Made by a program: the position numbers and the translations under genes. Shown piece after piece: positions 7,244 to 25,518 of a stretch of 64,000 bases of DNA. The notes under the pieces are model-generated. The model worked only from the letters and a program-made list of their open reading frames with translations. It ran no database searches and was not told where the DNA came from. Position 1 is the stretch's first letter. The number at the start of each line of letters is the position of its first letter. This DNA comes from a virus, in IMG/VR virus record IMGVR_UViG_3300017991_002758, positions 1-64,000 of that record. One strand, 5' to 3'.

Positions 7244-7360
7244 GCGCGGGTGGCGGAATGGCAGACGTGCTCCCAGGTTAGGGGAGTGCCGGGAAATAAG
7301 CAAACCTCTTCGGGAGGACCGAATACCCGGCGATTGCAGGTTCGAGTCCTGCGCCGCGCA
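7244..7360 (+). ncRNA. tRNA-like element (Leu/Ser-type D arm, canonical T arm, ~50-nt variable region, aberrant anticodon loop)
   Basis: GCGCGG/CCGCGC acceptor stem; TGGCGGAATGGCAGACG D arm; CTCCC/GGGAG stem with loop AGGTTAG; GCAGG-TTCGAGT-CCTGC T arm; no encoded CCA. Confidence 0.7.
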
Positions 7361-16042: not shown

Positions 16043-16357
16043 ATGGCATTTTACGAGCAACGGAATATAGATCTGCCGCTCAACCCAGCGGGAGATACAA
16101 TGGTGGTAGGTGCTGGCGCCGAGATGAACATAGGCCAGATGTCGGACAAAGGGTACGATTACCTCAAAGGCGCCGCGGCCGCCTTTACTGCGGTGCTGGA
16201 AGGTAGCGTTACAGGCCTCCAATGGACAACCATTACAACTCTGGCCGCCAGTGGACAGGGTTCCGTTGCCGCGCAGTACAATTACGTACGGGTGAATTGC
16301 TCAGTACAGGGCGCGCTCGACAATACGGTGCTGAAGATAGCCGGCAAGGTTCTGTAA
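16043..16357 (+). CDS. hypothetical protein
   Basis: AAGGAGG RBS; TAATG overlap with portal. Confidence 0.65.
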   Translation: MAFYEQRNIDLPLNPAGDTMVVGAGAEMNIGQMSDKGYDYLKGAAAAFTAVLEGSVTGLQWTTITTLAASGQGSVAAQYNYVRVNCSVQGALDNTVLKIAGKVL

Positions 16358-18342
16358 TGGCATCGCCTAAAAAGAAAAAGAGAGCCTCGCCACCGGCCAA
16401 AAAAGATGAGCGGCCAGAGCTTTCGCTGCGTCAGATCCTGGCCAAGGCCTCGGTTCTGACCGGCCGGGACGTAGAGGAATCAGCGGCCATCGCCAGGATG
16501 GAAAATACGCTGCACCTTTACAGCGAGGAGGGCGCAGTCGACCCACCGTACGATCCGGAGTCGCTGCTGAATTACATCGAGCTGACGCCGCACTTGAAAC
16601 CCTGCATTGCCTCTTACCAGTTGAACATCGAGGGTTACGGATACCAGCCGGTGCCATTGGTTCCCTGGATGGAGGATCTGGATTCCGACGAGGCCACGGA
16701 AGCGATCCGCGACGCGCTGCAGATCGAACGCTGGGTCGATGAGGAAGAGGCGGCGCTCGAGGCCGGCACTCAAGAGAAGCAGGAGGAAGGCGATGAGCCT
16801 ATCGAAGAGCCAGAGCCCGAAGGTGAACCCGAAGGCCCAGGCGAAGAGGGCACGCCGGTCGACGAGGACGAGGACGGCGAGATCACTGAAGAGGAAATAG
16901 CCGAGGTCAAAGAGGATCTGGCCACCAAGTTGCGCCGGGAGCAATTTCTGTTCGAGGCCTTCTTCAAGAACTGCTGCTCGACCATGAGCTTTACCAAACT
17001 CAGGCGCATTACCCGCGGGGATATCGAAGGCAATGGCTGGGGTGCGTGGGAGATGTTGCGCGATGGTTTCGGCCGGCTGAAGCGACTGAACTACATTCCG
17101 GGCTACACCGTGCGACCGCTGAAGAACGAGGGCGAGCTGGTGGAAGTCACAGAGCCCGACCCAGTGACGCCACTTTCCGAAGGGCGCGAGGTAATGGTTC
17201 AACGGCGCTTTACCCGGTTCGTTCAAATCGTCGGCGACAAGAAGGTATTCTTCAAGTCTCCCAAAGATCCTCGGGTAATCAGCCGCACAACGGGCAAGGT
17301 CTACACAACAGTGGCCGAGATGCGGCGCCCAAAGGACAAAGGCGGCGAAGGCCCAGAGGCCAAGGAAGCCAACGAGCTCATCTACATCTCGCTGCATGAT
17401 GCTCGAACGCCATGTCCACCTCCGCGCTGGATTGGAAACTTGTTGGCCGTGCTTGGTGTGCGCGAGGCTGACGAGTCCAATTACTTCTACCTGGACAGTA
17501 ACGCCATCCCACCCGGCATCCTGTTCGTCGCCGGCGGAAAAGTATCACGCGACATGAAGGACCGACTAGAGCAGCGCATGACGGCAGAGCTTAGTGGTGC
17601 GAAAAACAACCACAAGATCCTGGTGGTGGAAGCCACGCCGATGAAATTGAAAGGCGAGGATCGAACGCTGCTGCCGTCCATGCAATACGAGTCGCTGAGG
17701 GATTCACAGCAAAACGATGCGACGTTCACCACATTCGATGAGCGGTCAGCCGACAGGATCGGCGCGTCGTTCCGCTTGCCGCCAATGCTCCGTGGTTACA
17801 CGCCAAAGAACTTGAACCGGGCAACGGCGATGGCCGCGCTGTCATTCGCCGAGAGTCAGGTATTCGAGCCAGAGCGCGAGGATATTGACTGGGTAGTGAA
17901 CCACCACATACTGCCCGAGATTGGCGTTACGCTGTACCGCTTCCGCTCCAATTCACCACCAACACGGTCGCCGGAGGAAATTGCCGAGCTGATCAAGGTA
18001 GCCGCTCCCCACGGAGGCCTGCTGCCGTACGAGATCCGCGGCCTGCTTTCCGACGCATTGAACCGCACGCTCACGAAGGTTGAAGAGGAATGGTCACGTT
18101 GGCCAATGCCAATGACGCTGGCCGGGATCGGTGAAGGCGGAAGCGTGATGCCCGGCGGAGAAGAAGGAGAGCCCGAGTCTATGGCGATGGTGGTGCGAAA
18201 CCTAGAGGCACTGCGCCAGAGAGTTGAAGCAATACTGACCCAGGAGTTGCGCGAAGCCGGTATGGACATGGACGTCAAGACGTCGTGGCTTGACGCCAGC
18301 GATCTCGAAGCCGAAGAAGGTGGCGAAGAAGATGAAGATTAG
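16357..18342 (+). CDS. portal protein (PBSX-like) with acidic insertion
   Basis: PPYDP..L, GNGWGAWEMLRD, NAIPPGIL, FRLPP.LRG, NRATA..A....E.QVFEPER; position after TerL. Confidence 0.9.
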   Translation: MASPKKKKRASPPAKKDERPELSLRQILAKASVLTGRDVEESAAIARMENTLHLYSEEGAVDPPYDPESLLNYIELTPHLKPCIASYQLNIEGYGYQPVPLVPWMEDLDSDEATEAIRDALQIERWVDEEEAALEAGTQEKQEEGDEPIEEPEPEGEPEGPGEEGTPVDEDEDGEITEEEIAEVKEDLATKLRREQFLFEAFFKNCCSTMSFTKLRRITRGDIEGNGWGAWEMLRDGFGRLKRLNYIPGYTVRPLKNEGELVEVTEPDPVTPLSEGREVMVQRRFTRFVQIVGDKKVFFKSPKDPRVISRTTGKVYTTVAEMRRPKDKGGEGPEAKEANELIYISLHDARTPCPPPRWIGNLLAVLGVREADESNYFYLDSNAIPPGILFVAGGKVSRDMKDRLEQRMTAELSGAKNNHKILVVEATPMKLKGEDRTLLPSMQYESLRDSQQNDATFTTFDERSADRIGASFRLPPMLRGYTPKNLNRATAMAALSFAESQVFEPEREDIDWVVNHHILPEIGVTLYRFRSNSPPTRSPEEIAELIKVAAPHGGLLPYEIRGLLSDALNRTLTKVEEEWSRWPMPMTLAGIGEGGSVMPGGEEGEPESMAMVVRNLEALRQRVEAILTQELREAGMDMDVKTSWLDASDLEAEEGGEEDED

Positions 18343-19116: not shown

Positions 19117-19512
19117 ATGGAATGGTACGATGGGAATTATGCCGTGCTGCCCGACGTTAACGAGCTGAGCCAGCGTCCGCACATCGGAAGGGGAGACATA
19201 GTGAAGCATAAGAGCGGCGCCATCATTCTGAGATGTCCGGCATGCGGCGCTGTTCAATTTGCTCGAGCACAGATCCTGAATTCCGATAAGGCGCCCACTC
19301 TAAGTCAGCCTGTTCATTGCGGTAGTGGTCATTGTCAGAAATGTGCCATCTGGTTCACGATCAAGAACGGCCGAGCGGAAAAGACGAAGGAACCGAAACC
19401 GGCCAAGGTTGAGCTCTCCAATAAACTCAAGGCCGCCGGCGTCGGCCCGGCCCGAGTTGAAAAAGATCCCAAGGTGAAACCGCGATTCAAACTGAAGGAC
19501 CTGAATAGGTGA
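19117..19512 (+). CDS. zinc-ribbon hypothetical protein
   Basis: AGGAGG RBS; CPAC...C...HCQKC. Confidence 0.6.
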   Translation: MEWYDGNYAVLPDVNELSQRPHIGRGDIVKHKSGAIILRCPACGAVQFARAQILNSDKAPTLSQPVHCGSGHCQKCAIWFTIKNGRAEKTKEPKPAKVELSNKLKAAGVGPARVEKDPKVKPRFKLKDLNR

Positions 19513-22500
19513 TAGCAGCGTATTCACAGCCGGCCGAAGGCTTCATGTCGCTGTGGCCGGTGACCGACCTGGGGAATGACCCGACACTTGCGTTCTGGAA
19601 GGCCGGAATACGTTCCTCGCAGGCCGGCGTGCCCATCGCCAAGGGCATGGCCCTGTTAATACTGGACGGCGCGAGGCCTCGTGCTGTGAGGCTTCAGGCC
19701 CGGGACCTGGCGGAAGCCCGGATGTTGGCGGTCAAGGCCTCGGTGGGCCACGAGGTAGTGCTGCTAAACGCCGTCGCCCAGGGCAAGCAAACCGTCTTCC
19801 GCCGGCGGGAGATTATCCGGCCCATGTCCGTTGCGGCCGCCTCCAAGGACGACAGCCTGTCCCTCGTTGGTCCTAACGGAGTGTTGGTGGAAAAGGCATT
19901 GTCGCCGTTCGATCCCAAGGATCAGCGCATCATTGCCAACAGACTCGCAAGTCAGATTGGGTACTACGAAAAGCTCGCGCTGGGCCCGAAGTTGGACAAG
20001 TGGATGGAAAGCCTGGACCGCAACTGGTCGAAGTTGAACGCCAACCAGATTTCGCGCGCCATCTCCCAGGCCCGGACTCAATTACGAAAGCTCATGGGCT
20101 CGAGCGCCAACAAGCTCATGCCAATGTGGAAACAGAAGATTGAGCTGACGCTGACTGGTGTGGTACGCGGCACAAAGAAAATTGTGCGCGCTAACTTCTT
20201 GCCGCAGATAGGCCAGTCGTTGAGCCAACCAGACCTTACCGCGATCAATAACATCACCAACCAACAGGGATTCTGGCTCAGGAATTCCGCCGGCGTGCGC
20301 GCCGATCATTTAACCAAGCAAGGTCAGACAATTATCAACGACGGTCTGAAGAAAGGCCTGGGCCGCGAGCAAATCGCCAGGGCGATAAGAGCAGGAGTGC
20401 CGGCCGCATGGCAGAAGTACGGCATGAATTATTTCAAGACGCTGTCTTCTGTTTCCGTGAGTCGCGCAAGGTCGTATTCTGAGGTTTCAGGCTACGTTGA
20501 AGCCGGCATTGAATCGCTGGAAATTCAGGCTGTGCTCGATGAGCGCACCACTGAAATATGCCGATGCCTGGACGGGCAGATCATTGAAACCCATCTGGTG
20601 AGTCAGCAGATAACAGGCACGATGAATTTGGCCTCGCCGGAAGACATCAGGGACGCCTCGCCATTCTTGAAGGTGGTGAATCGTGATGTGAAGGGCGACA
20701 CGATCAGGTCTATAGTAACGGCGAACAATAATAAACCCATCGCCGACATCACGCGATCTGGAATGGGCCGTGTAGATGACCGTGGTCAATTCAGCAGGTA
20801 CATGGCGAACAACCAGTTGCCCAACGAGAATATCGGTCCGCCACCGTACCATCATTTGTGAAGGTCATGGACGGTGCCGGTGGCATCGACGTCCCAAGTC
20901 CCGCGCAACACGGTTCCCCTGGCGGAGGGCAGCACACCAGTTCCTCCGCGGCCGATTAAACCAGGAGGTAGAATACTGCCAGGCGTAGGTCCGAGGCCTC
21001 AGTCATTGTCGAGAGCCCCGACGACGACCAATCCTGTCATGGTAGGCGACCCGGATCTCATTGAACGCTACCCATTCAGCGGCGACTTCTTCGATCCGCG
21101 GCCGTTGCCGAAGGTTCGATTGCCCAAAGGCAGAATGAATATGGGTGCTGTTTATCAGCGGTTCTATTTCGATCCCAAGAGTGGATATATCCGCGCTGGT
21201 GGCAATATCAGTAACGTCACATTGCCCAAAGATAAACTATTGCCCCCCACTTCCAATCTCACAAAGGAGCTCGCGCTTACTTCCGATACTTCCGGCGTTG
21301 CCATGCACGTTGAAAAGCTTGACGCTCAAACATTGAAGGACATTGTTCTTGCAGAATGGAAGCAGCCGGCGGCGCGCCGGGTATATCATATTCAGGCGAA
21401 TCTCACTGGCTCGGAGCAGTACATAAAATTCAACCACGATATGAAGGCCAACTCCAAACGATGGGAGAGCTGGTTGCGTTTGCGCTGCAATGATTCAAAT
21501 AGCATTGCCAATGCCCTGGCGAATCTTGAGAAAAAAGGGTTCATCCAAATGACGAAGGACCCGCAGGCAGCAACCTTCGGTTCACCTGGGCCCAAGATGC
21601 CTCGTCTTAAAAAACCAATACCCGGTGAGCCCATAAAGCCCAAGCCGGTGAAAGGTCCGAAGGTAATTCCAAAACCAAAGCCCACAGTCACCGAACCTAA
21701 AATTCCAGGGCAACCGCCAGAGCCAAAGCCCAAACCTAAACGGAAGCCGAAGCCGAAGCCGAAGCCGAAGCCAAAAGATCCGTACGCACAATATAAATAC
21801 GTGCGCAGCGAAAGGATGACCAAACAAATCGAAACGCGGATCAAGTTGGAAACTGCAAAGATAAAAGATGCAATGGCGGCAGAAGCCAGAGCCCTGGGCA
21901 AAGAGGCATTAGACAGTAGAGAACAAGCAGTTTTTTTGCGTAAATACTGCGCCCAGGCAACAGGCGAAGCGAAATTAACTGAAAAAGAGATCTCCAAGTT
22001 CACTAAAAAGATGACAGTGGCCGATAAGAAAGTACTCACGGATACTGTAAAGGGGAAAATTGAAGGGAGTTGGTCTGGAGTTTATTATGGTAGTACAACT
22101 AATCCCCAAATCACTTTGATGCCACAGCGAGAGCTAAACGAATTGTACCGCGATATGTCTTCTCATTTGAGCCCCAAGGTTTGGCAGCATGCAAAGAAAT
22201 ATGGATTGCCACGTGTTCATTGGGTCGATGGCCTACAGAGTGGTGCATATTATCAAGAAGCCAACAATACCATTGTGCTGCCGAGGGGAACCTCGTGGAA
22301 TAAAATGCAGGCAATTTTCAGACATGAATTTGGTCATTTCATAGACCGCCTGGGCTACAACAACATGGCCATAGATGTCGCCAGGCGGAGATGGGCAACC
22401 AGTGGCAGACTTACCAGATCGAAAGGTGGGTGGTCTTATTTAAAAGGCCTGTGGTATGACGACTATATGGGCAGGGTCTATCTTTATGAAAATGGAGCAC

Positions 22501-22676
22501 GGTATGTTAACAGAGGCGAGATACATAGCATGCTGAATGAGCTTTTTGCCGAAGCTCCGTATCGTTTTGGTGTTAGAAACAGCAAGGCACTTTATGCACT
22601 TAAGACCCAGTGGGAAACCAATCCGGAATCAATCGCACACTGGGTTGCATGGGCAAATGGAGCATATATTCCATGA
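19509..22676 (+). CDS. MuF/gp7-like head morphogenesis protein with C-terminal zincin domain; in-frame TGA at 20859-20861 (candidate selenocysteine)
   Basis: AVLDERTTEIC..LDG then PPYHHL[TGA]RSWTVP; ORFs 19509-20861 and 20874-22676 share one frame; Pro/Lys linker; GAYYQ...TIVL...RHEFGHFID. Confidence 0.8.
20862..20894 (+). promoter_or_regulatory. candidate bacterial SECIS hairpin
   Basis: GGACG-GTGCC[GGT]GGCAT-(CGA bulge)-CGTCC at 20869-20894; G-starting loop 17 nt after the TGA. Confidence 0.65.
21720..21775 (+). repeat. Lys-Pro dipeptide repeat (AAGCCG units)
   Basis: KPKPKRKPKPKPKPKPK linker in the MuF extension. Confidence 0.8.
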
Positions 22677-23056
22677 TAGAAAAACAATTTAGTTGGCAGG
22701 GGTTAGGAAGGATGAACATAGTCACCAGACAGAATGAACATGTGGCAACTTTCGAATTCAAGGGAACGGTTGCCACCGGAAAAGGCGAATGGACCTGGTT
22801 CAAGGATGATCAGGTCAGGAAAAAAATAGAGAATGCGATTACAGCGGGAAAAGAAAGGTTGGGGAATTTGGAGGTCAGTGACATGGTCAATAATGCTGTA
22901 AAAGTTAAAGTGTGGAAGGGGTTCTCAGGCATGTACGGTGGGCTCATCAACTCATTGCCCACCTTCGGTTTAGACGTGGACAGGGATACAATACAATGGC
23001 CCGGAGGGATACTTGAAAACGGAGGAAAGATTGACGACGAGCTAGGTCTCGAATAA
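22673..23056 (+). CDS. putative immunity protein for the MuF C-terminal domain
   Basis: Small, visibly AT-richer ORF with ATGA overlap on the toxin stop; positional inference. Confidence 0.5.
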   Translation: MIEKQFSWQGLGRMNIVTRQNEHVATFEFKGTVATGKGEWTWFKDDQVRKKIENAITAGKERLGNLEVSDMVNNAVKVKVWKGFSGMYGGLINSLPTFGLDVDRDTIQWPGGILENGGKIDDELGLE

Positions 23057-24486: not shown

Positions 24487-25518
24487 GTGGAAATCGGCAT
24501 ATACACATCGAGCCGGGAGAATAACGACGGAATTCCTATCTCCTTTTTCGGTGGCAGCGATGAACAGCTCATCAAGGCTCTGTACAAGGCCGCGCTGGAT
24601 ATAACAGGGCCAGGCCTAGAGAGATTCGATCCCGAGCCCGGAATGCGCGTCAAGAAGGTTGGCGAAATCCGCATCGCGGCAGTGGACGACGACGCGGTAT
24701 ATGTCGTTCAAGCTGATGAAGCAGCCAAGCCCGAAGGCGGACGCACACCATCGGGAGAGAATGGTACCTGGGCGATTCAATCGCTGATATTCAACAAGGA
24801 TCATTTCACGCTAGACCAGGCGAGGAAATGGATTCAAGACCACAAAGGATTTGGGGACTACGGCGCCGACGAAACGAGCTCGTCGTTTCGATTCCGGCAA
24901 TACGATCCTCAGTACTTCTCCGAATTTCGGACGATAACCATTGATACCGGCATCAGTGCCGCGTACGGGAAAATAAGCAAGGACGTCGAACGGAATGAGG
25001 AGGAATCGAAGAAGGCCCTAGAGGAGAGCATCACTCGTTACTCGGCAATACGCAAGATTAACGAAGGCATCCTCGCCAAAGGGCTCAAACTGTTGGCTGG
25101 TTCAGCGCGGATTTATAAATCCGAAGACGGCAAAGAAGAAGAGCGTTTCGTCATGAGCCTGGTGTTGGAGCCCAATGATGGCGAAGACGGAGCGCCGCTG
25201 AAACCGGACACGCAAAAGGACATCTATTCTAAATTCGACATCCGCAAGGCATGTCATTACTGGATGGAACATGGCGGCGCAGTCGACCTGGCGCATTCGT
25301 GGAAAGCGTTGGGCAACGACAAGGTCCGCACCCTGGAAAATTATATCGCGCCGTGCGACTTTAAACTGGGCGAGGGTAAAAAGTCATATGATGTCGTTGA
25401 AGGCACGTGGCTTTTGGCTCTCAGGATATGCGACGATGATCTGTGGTCCGGCGTTAAGTCGGGCAAGATCGGCGCGTATTCCATTGGCGGAACGGCATAC
25501 AGGGAAGAAGTCGGTTAA
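24487..25518 (+). CDS. XkdF-like prohead serine protease
   Basis: VLEP..DTQKD.YS..DIRKACH.WM, VD.AH, ENYIAP.DF, GTWL...D.LW..VK.G...YSIGG. Confidence 0.85.
   Translation: MEIGIYTSSRENNDGIPISFFGGSDEQLIKALYKAALDITGPGLERFDPEPGMRVKKVGEIRIAAVDDDAVYVVQADEAAKPEGGRTPSGENGTWAIQSLIFNKDHFTLDQARKWIQDHKGFGDYGADETSSSFRFRQYDPQYFSEFRTITIDTGISAAYGKISKDVERNEEESKKALEESITRYSAIRKINEGILAKGLKLLAGSARIYKSEDGKEEERFVMSLVLEPNDGEDGAPLKPDTQKDIYSKFDIRKACHYWMEHGGAVDLAHSWKALGNDKVRTLENYIAPCDFKLGEGKKSYDVVEGTWLLALRICDDDLWSGVKSGKIGAYSIGGTAYREEVG

Follow-up and report, generated by a model that had tools for sequence, protein, structure and literature searches.

Why should the gene for a phage head protein carry a stop codon exactly where its relatives encode an invariant cysteine, and then continue in the same reading frame for hundreds of codons? 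The question is raised by a stretch of 64,000 nucleotides (the window), which represents the first 64 kb of the virus record IMGVR_UViG_3300017991_002758, a genome of 99.6 kb rated as complete by CheckV. An open reading frame (ORF) on the plus strand (19509-20861) encodes a 450-amino-acid protein of the MuF/gp7 type with the C-terminal residues GPPPYHHL and is closed by a TGA at 20859-20861. The frame past this codon (RSWTVPV...) stays open for 604 codons up to a second TGA at 22674-22676, and the read-through product of 19509-22676 would comprise 1055 amino acids. This arrangement was noticed in an initial annotation of the sequence, which described a MuF ORF ending in PPYHHL-TGA, a frame open for about 600 codons beyond it and a product of about 1055 residues, all of which is borne out here. 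The same annotation proposed the UGA as a codon for selenocysteine (Sec). The comparative analyses described below suggest that this is probably correct, and that SelB of the host inserts Sec at codon 451. The features that the argument relies on are the following.

19509-20858, plus strand: N-terminal 450 codons, a divergent MuF/gp7-type head domain (PF04233, TIGR01641 and PHROG matches).
20535-20567 and 20841-20858, plus strand: core motifs of the MuF domain, LDERTT-EICR and PPYHHL, respectively (alignment columns).
20856-20858, plus strand: UUG (Leu) codon directly 5' of the UGA, common to the four UGA lineages with DNA.
20859-20861, plus strand: in-frame UGA on the invariant Cys column, residue 451, candidate selenocysteine codon (alignment and DNA of relatives).
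20869-20894, plus strand: hairpin resembling a selenocysteine insertion sequence (SECIS), with its core 5' arm at 20872-20878, GGU loop at 20879-20881 and 3' arm at 20882-20888 (folding).
20862-22673, plus strand: 604 codons reached only if the UGA is decoded (open frame; homologous C-terminal parts in Cys-form relatives).
22674-22676, plus strand: true stop (TGA) of the full-length gene, overlapping the ATG of the next small ORF.

The conserved motifs D..T...CR and PP.H..CR are both present in this MuF protein, and among 43 family sequences the residues D344, T347, C351, R352, P445, P446, H448, C/U451 and R452 are invariant. The alignments, with up to 43 members, place the TGA exactly on the conserved cysteine, as had been claimed: column 451 is TGA in this phage and Cys in every relative that reads through. 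All 20 distinct Cys-form relatives examined in IMG/VR (25-55% identity) have TGC or TGT at this column and stay in frame for 257-814 codons past it, or for 10 codons in the most distant one. As all 20 read on in frame, the long fusion represents the ancestral state. Scanning IMG/VR and JGI metagenomes with a DNA pattern identifies three further lineages with TGA at codon 451, namely L060 (equal to L061 and L064), L078 and L079, where L stands for DNA loci from IMG/VR or JGI and P, below, for database proteins. After their TGA these three continue in frame with R-S/T-x-T-V/L-P and with 247-337 open codons. In the protein databases, 16 proteins belonging to ten clusters at below 50% identity stop exactly before column 451, while 149 carry Cys there. 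Codon 451 is where all stop forms of the protein collection end. None of the database proteins ends one to seven residues past the column, and the natural ends of short MuF proteins lie 8-14 residues later. Pairs of TGA and TGY at this column, which the initial annotation had recommended looking for, are thus seen in several independent lineages. GenBank phages gave no DNA or protein match, a scan of GTDB genomes for the UGA form gave chance matches alone, and wider pattern scans of IMG/VR gave no more members of this MuF subfamily.

The distribution of the two forms over the family is not that of a single event. A maximum-likelihood tree requires five to six switches between Cys and UGA, and a single clade of stop forms is rejected by the approximately unbiased (AU) test (delta log-likelihood 292, p 1e-88); the UGA at column 451 has arisen repeatedly and independently. 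In the clade formed by P0003/4/5/7/25/28 and L078 the stop has been kept across branch lengths of 0.1-0.3. Nested within this stop clade is a Cys form (L009, IMGVR_UViG_3300024433_001256, which is P0026) sharing 98% identity over 444 residues with the stop form P0003, showing that the Cys/UGA switch occurs between near-identical phages. Such a pair would also be expected if the UGA were a genuine stop, that is, if recurrent or polymorphic nonsense mutations had split the gene and left a downstream part that is either self-started (GTG at 20874) or decaying cargo. The step from TGY to TGA is a single one, gene callers annotate the gene in this way, and in this phage an AAGG lies 9 nt ahead of the GTG. 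Nonsense mutations should not, however, be found at this one column alone, nor should they persist through a whole clade over the branch lengths given above, and we regard this explanation as improbable also in view of the sequence that follows the UGA.

Several properties of the downstream frame indicate that translation continues past the UGA. It is intact over 247-604 codons in all four UGA lineages with DNA, and it is under purifying selection, the ratio of nonsynonymous to synonymous substitutions (dN/dS) past the UGA being 0.23 at a dS of 1.1 between the UGA form L078 and the Cys form L009. The family motif directly behind the UGA is kept by synonymous codons across the lineages (Arg as AGG, AGG, CGA and AGA; Ser as TCA, TCG and TCC; Thr as ACG and ACT; Pro as CCG, CCC and CCA), including the five that separate the UGA from any potential restart. 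No restart codon is shared by the UGA lineages, and L060, L078 and L079 have no common Shine-Dalgarno sequence; in this phage the junction lacks the strong GGAGG Shine-Dalgarno sequence found ahead of almost all other closely spaced genes of the genome. A frameshift at the UGU within UUGUGA was considered and rejected, the conserved downstream frame being frame 0.

Elsewhere in the genome TGA functions as an ordinary stop. It ends 51 of the 114 ORFs, 29 of these 51 with A/G-TGA overlaps, which agrees with the initial statement that recoding is not genome-wide. A phage with a reassigned stop would carry many in-frame copies of it and would not terminate genes with it; here a single in-frame codon of this kind occurs in 99.6 kb, at the one junction without a Shine-Dalgarno sequence and start codon, and TGA is in ordinary stop use. 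Three other same-frame TGA junctions on the plus strand (55295, 72301 and 81856) were examined as Sec candidates and rejected, as each has a Shine-Dalgarno sequence and an ATG. A search of the phage for tRNA genes found none, and hence neither a suppressor nor a Sec-like tRNA with a UCA anticodon. The normal use of TGA, the absence of a tRNA and the conserved downstream frame exclude, or make unlikely, a recoding of the whole genome, a suppressor tRNA and a downstream part that is dead. An artefact of sequencing or assembly has in its favor that the TGA is read from assemblies; however, an identical 450-amino-acid product is found on 11 contigs from three assembly collections (JGI, Logan and ENA), which disfavors a one-off assembly error, and the same TGA recurs in other lineages and samples. 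An artefact or a genome-wide reassignment of TGA can therefore hardly be credited. In the same genome TAG is enriched at tight junctions, where it closes the upstream gene in 14 of 18 same-frame neighbor pairs on the plus strand, compared to 35 of the 114 stops overall (at 41176-61631 of the window and at other tight junctions, with 42561/42570, 46027/46037 and 49183/49193 as examples). Most of these TAG stops overlap the Shine-Dalgarno sequence of the next gene as TAGGAGG, at a fixed distance of 8-12 nt to the start, and do not represent TAG recoding.

The codon directly before the UGA is also distinctive. It is UUG in all four UGA lineages with DNA (this phage, L060, L078 and L079), while Cys forms with Leu at this position use CUG, CUC or CUU, with the exception of L009, itself a member of the UGA clade. 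A C-terminal Leu is present in 15 of the 16 stop-form proteins. In E. coli, the codon 5' of the UGA influences the balance between termination and Sec insertion.

The phenomenon extends to canonical MuF genes. The pattern P.HPN-TGA-RC retrieves two loci of unrelated phages from IMG/VR, L133 (1512-2363, plus strand) and L134 (1675-2709, minus strand), in which the TGA falls on the first Cys of the canonical HPN-C-RC motif. With this TGA read as Cys, the match to PF04233 runs through profile positions 109-111 of 112. In L133 a hairpin of 7 bp with its loop at 18 nt is present, and the gene ends 10 codons after the UGA; since so little follows it, the UGA in L133 is no on/off switch for an effector.

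Immediately downstream of the UGA at 20859-20861 the mRNA can fold, as drawn in the initial annotation, into the hairpin GGACG-GUGCC[GGU]GGCAU-(CGA)-CGUCC (20869-20894, -11.4 kcal/mol), the loop of which is located 17 nt after the UGA; a gap-free version of 7 bp, CGGUGCC[GGU]GGCAUCG, is located at 20872-20888. Judged by the rule for bacterial SECIS (bSECIS) elements, which asks for a stem-loop just 3' of the UGA, an apical loop 16-37 nt away and a G among the first two loop bases, this phage has a stem of 7-10 bp and a GGU loop at 17 nt. The SECIS of E. coli fdhF served as a positive control. It comprises a 46-nt stretch that is 100% identical in fdhF of 5419 of 5426 E. coli genomes and has a GGUC loop 18 nt after the UGA, consistent with the earlier remark that the fdhF loop contains GGU. 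The locus L060, at about 45% protein identity, has CUGUUCC[GGU]GGAACAG at the same position and with the same loop. Compared to the stem of this phage it shows two compensatory pairs (G-C to U-A twice) and one change from G-U to G-C, the changes in the 5' arm being synonymous and those in the 3' arm altering residues, a pattern that is unpredicted by protein constraint. Folding energies are less informative. The stability of the hairpin is not beyond chance when compared to shuffled sequences (z -1.2, 24 of 200 fold as well), and as the genuine SECIS of fdhF does no better (z -1.3, 22 of 200) such shuffle statistics cannot decide the matter. UGA and Cys forms cannot be told apart by the z-scores of minimum free energies calculated over the 52 nt that follow the codon. 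A stricter rule (gap-free stem of at least 7 bp, GU in the loop, loop at 14-24 nt), chosen after seeing the data, is satisfied by three of six UGA forms and by none of 20 Cys forms. A search of the window with Rfam gave no match that reaches gathering score, and none to a SECIS family in the vicinity of the UGA.

As the hairpin evidence is not decisive, a leaky stop independent of Sec has to be considered, at which a near-cognate tRNA would give much short MuF protein and little MuF-effector fusion, as for the A1 protein of Q-beta. This would suit a protein needed in few copies per capsid and would account for the maintenance of coding past the UGA, and the UUG before the UGA, common to four of four lineages, together with the terminal Leu of 15 of 16 stop-form proteins shows that the local context matters. 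A leaky stop could, however, fall on any codon near the domain border, whereas all 16 premature ends fall on the Cys column and none on the neighboring codons for Trp, Arg, Ser or Tyr. When bacteria misread UGA they mostly insert Trp, which at this column would destroy an invariant Cys. Moreover, L133 with its 10 codons gains no second product, and covariation is seen in the hairpin, the loop and spacing of which resemble those of fdhF. We therefore find a leaky stop unlikely.

A stop that is confined to a Cys column, recurrent, of independent origin, followed by maintained coding and found in a genome with otherwise normal TGA use is the standard comparative signature of selenocysteine. From the UGA itself, its match with the Cys of relatives, its recurrence, the read-through and the geometry of the hairpin we infer Sec as the inserted residue, the use of SelB and a gating role. 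The hairpin located 11-30 nt downstream would function as a SECIS of the bacterial type, to which SelB of the host is recruited with Sec-tRNA(Sec). Sec would replace the conserved Cys and translation would run on into the effector part, while ribosomes that terminate would release a 450-amino-acid MuF protein without its last motif. In such a process the UGA would determine how much short product is made relative to the long one, and formation of the long one would require selenium and a host competent for Sec.

A number of observations weigh against selenocysteine. The TGA at 20859-20861 is known from assembled contigs, and the fact that every stop is TGA provides no independent evidence, because TGY reaches only TGA in one step. 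The loose bSECIS rules are satisfied by four of four UGA forms but also by 16 of 20 Cys forms, and the energies of the two groups do not differ significantly (p 0.14). A covarying hairpin, which the initial annotation had advised looking for, is seen between this phage and L060, while three other UGA forms have different or weaker hairpins: that of L079 is weak (-3.1 kcal/mol), L078 has a long interrupted stem of different geometry with a GUGG loop at 21 nt, and L134 likewise shows another or weaker hairpin. No tRNA-Sec and no SelB is encoded by this phage or by G001, a complete phage of 98 kb (the source of L061); the Sec machinery would be that of the host. A selenoprotein among virion structural components would be unusual, and the Cys of the MuF motif has no known role. 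A Foldseek search of the MuF models against the PDB gave nothing at E<=0.001, and the Cys subdomain has no solved fold relative. The AlphaFold models themselves are of good confidence by the predicted local distance difference test (pLDDT 83 for the MuF core and 91.8 for the Cys-bearing subdomain). The best VIA-align scores are Z 7.6 for the helical part and Z 3.7 for the subdomain, and a sequence profile search of the PDB gave nothing relevant. A metal site composed of Cys351, His448 and Sec451 is a guess.

An alternative that would account equally well for the exact position on the Cys column and for the SECIS-like hairpin is a dedicated tRNA of the host that decodes the UGA as Cys or as some other standard residue. 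A tRNA-Sec-like tRNA-Cys brought in by SelB, as reportedly described in the literature on facile recoding of Sec, would be an example. To our knowledge systems of this kind are rare, and the phage is without a suppressor or a Sec-like tRNA with a UCA anticodon, which leaves this explanation very improbable. A tRNA-like element of 117 nt does occur at 7244-7360 on the plus strand, missed by ARAGORN. Its acceptor stem is 7 bp long with one G-G mismatch, its T arm is perfect and its variable arm measures about 40 nt; the anticodon loop reads AGGUUAG (GUU, no U33), so that the element is no decoder of UGA. It was rejected as a phage tRNA-Sec, as its sole Rfam match is to tRNA-Sec at 13.8 bits, compared to a gathering score of 47, and as it has no UCA.

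The MuF gene is placed in the head module between a portal gene and a gene for an XkdF-type protease, and the additional features of this region are given here.

16222-18342, plus strand: portal protein gene (PF04860 Phage_portal, E 1.4e-7), upstream of the MuF gene in the head module.
21726-21776 (approximate), plus strand: Lys/Pro linker, preceded by a Pro-rich region, within the post-UGA part.
22323-22337, plus strand: HEFGH motif of the C-terminal zincin-like domain (DUF6782).
22673-23056, plus strand: ORF of 127 amino acids, ATGA-coupled to the stop of the MuF fusion (ATG overlap).
24487-25518, plus strand: XkdF-type head protease gene (PF14550, E 4e-19), downstream of the MuF gene in the head module.

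The N-terminal part matches PF04233 with 27.3 bits (E 6e-6; cut-off 29.6) and TIGR01641 with 28.8 bits (E 1e-6; cut-off 39.65), in both cases below the cut-off, although PF04233 is assigned to the 450-amino-acid protein in the precomputed table of the protein collection. It also matches phrog_13868 (E 1e-30) and PHROGs of minor head proteins (E 1e-5 to 1e-7). The post-UGA part matches the putative metallopeptidase family DUF6782 with 28.3 bits, above the cut-off of 27. The most likely reading is that 19509-22676 forms one gene of 1055 codons, predicted to encode a MuF head protein that is associated with the portal and joined by a Lys/Pro linker to an effector of the zincin-like kind, and this predicted layout is that of the MuF-effector fusions or MuF polymorphic toxins. 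The 127-amino-acid ORF that follows, tested as 22610-23053, has no Pfam match; its product could provide immunity to the zincin-like domain or act as its partner. The GC content is 0.50 in the post-UGA part (20862-22673), 0.57 in the MuF part and 0.55 in the whole window, and the lower value behind the UGA is consistent with a swapped-in effector cassette. A further-reaching possibility, which we advance with considerable reservation, is that MuF is a phage selenoprotein family in which the UGA and its SECIS would serve as a host- and selenium-dependent gate, so that a host with Sec competence and ample selenium would allow the full MuF-metallopeptidase fusion to be made and loaded into the capsid, and any other host a truncated MuF alone. 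Under such a gate the frequent flips between Cys and UGA among near-identical phages would track shifts between Sec-using and Sec-lacking hosts.

Compared to bacterial selenoprotein genes of the E. coli fdhF type, the gene shares an in-frame UGA at the Cys of its homologs and a hairpin directly 3' of it with a GGU-starting loop (17 versus 18 nt from the UGA), and as in bacterial selenoproteins in general the Sec and Cys forms would interchange repeatedly among close relatives. It differs in being a phage gene without Sec machinery of its own, for which the use of SelB and the incorporation of selenium are proposed from sequence, and in encoding a component of the virion head rather than a redox enzyme, with a UGA that is proposed also to gate an extension of 600 amino acids. 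With the MuF/gp7 proteins and MuF toxins (phage Mu gpF, SPP1 gp7; Jamet et al. 2017, PMC5576092; Iyer et al. 2017, PMC5512222) it has in common an N-terminal MuF domain beside the portal gene. As in MuF polymorphic toxins, of which 20% carry a metallopeptidase, the C-terminal domain is variable, here zincin-like, and is followed by a small coupled ORF. It departs from MuF/gp7 in a very divergent domain with Pfam and TIGRFAM scores below the curated cut-offs, in about 85 residues inserted before the last motif, and in the UGA that takes the place of the first Cys of this terminal motif. The MuF papers that were searched for it hold nothing on Sec or on stop codons in these proteins. The coat/A1 read-through of Q-beta resembles the present case in that one UGA would give both a short and a C-terminally extended virion protein. 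The UGA of Q-beta terminates the coat protein itself and is decoded as Trp, whereas the UGA discussed here is tied to an invariant Cys column and a SECIS-like hairpin. Phages with reassigned stops (TGA as Trp, or TAG as Gln in late genes) likewise contain in-frame stops inside structural genes, but here there is one such codon in 99.6 kb, a TGA that ends 51 of the 114 ORFs, and no suppressor tRNA.

Cells, and a few animal viruses, are known to decode selenocysteine. A literature search that included recent surveys of bacterial selenoproteomes found no bacteriophage selenoprotein and no Sec in a virion structural protein, in line with the earlier comment that a phage head protein containing selenocysteine had not been described. 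If confirmed, the MuF genes would indicate that phages borrow the SelB and tRNA-Sec of their hosts by means of SECIS elements of their own. The UGA would then be a marker of host range, as the host must be Sec-competent, and the invariant Cys of MuF would be flagged as chemically active. As gene callers split these genes at the UGA, MuF-effector fusions are under-annotated.

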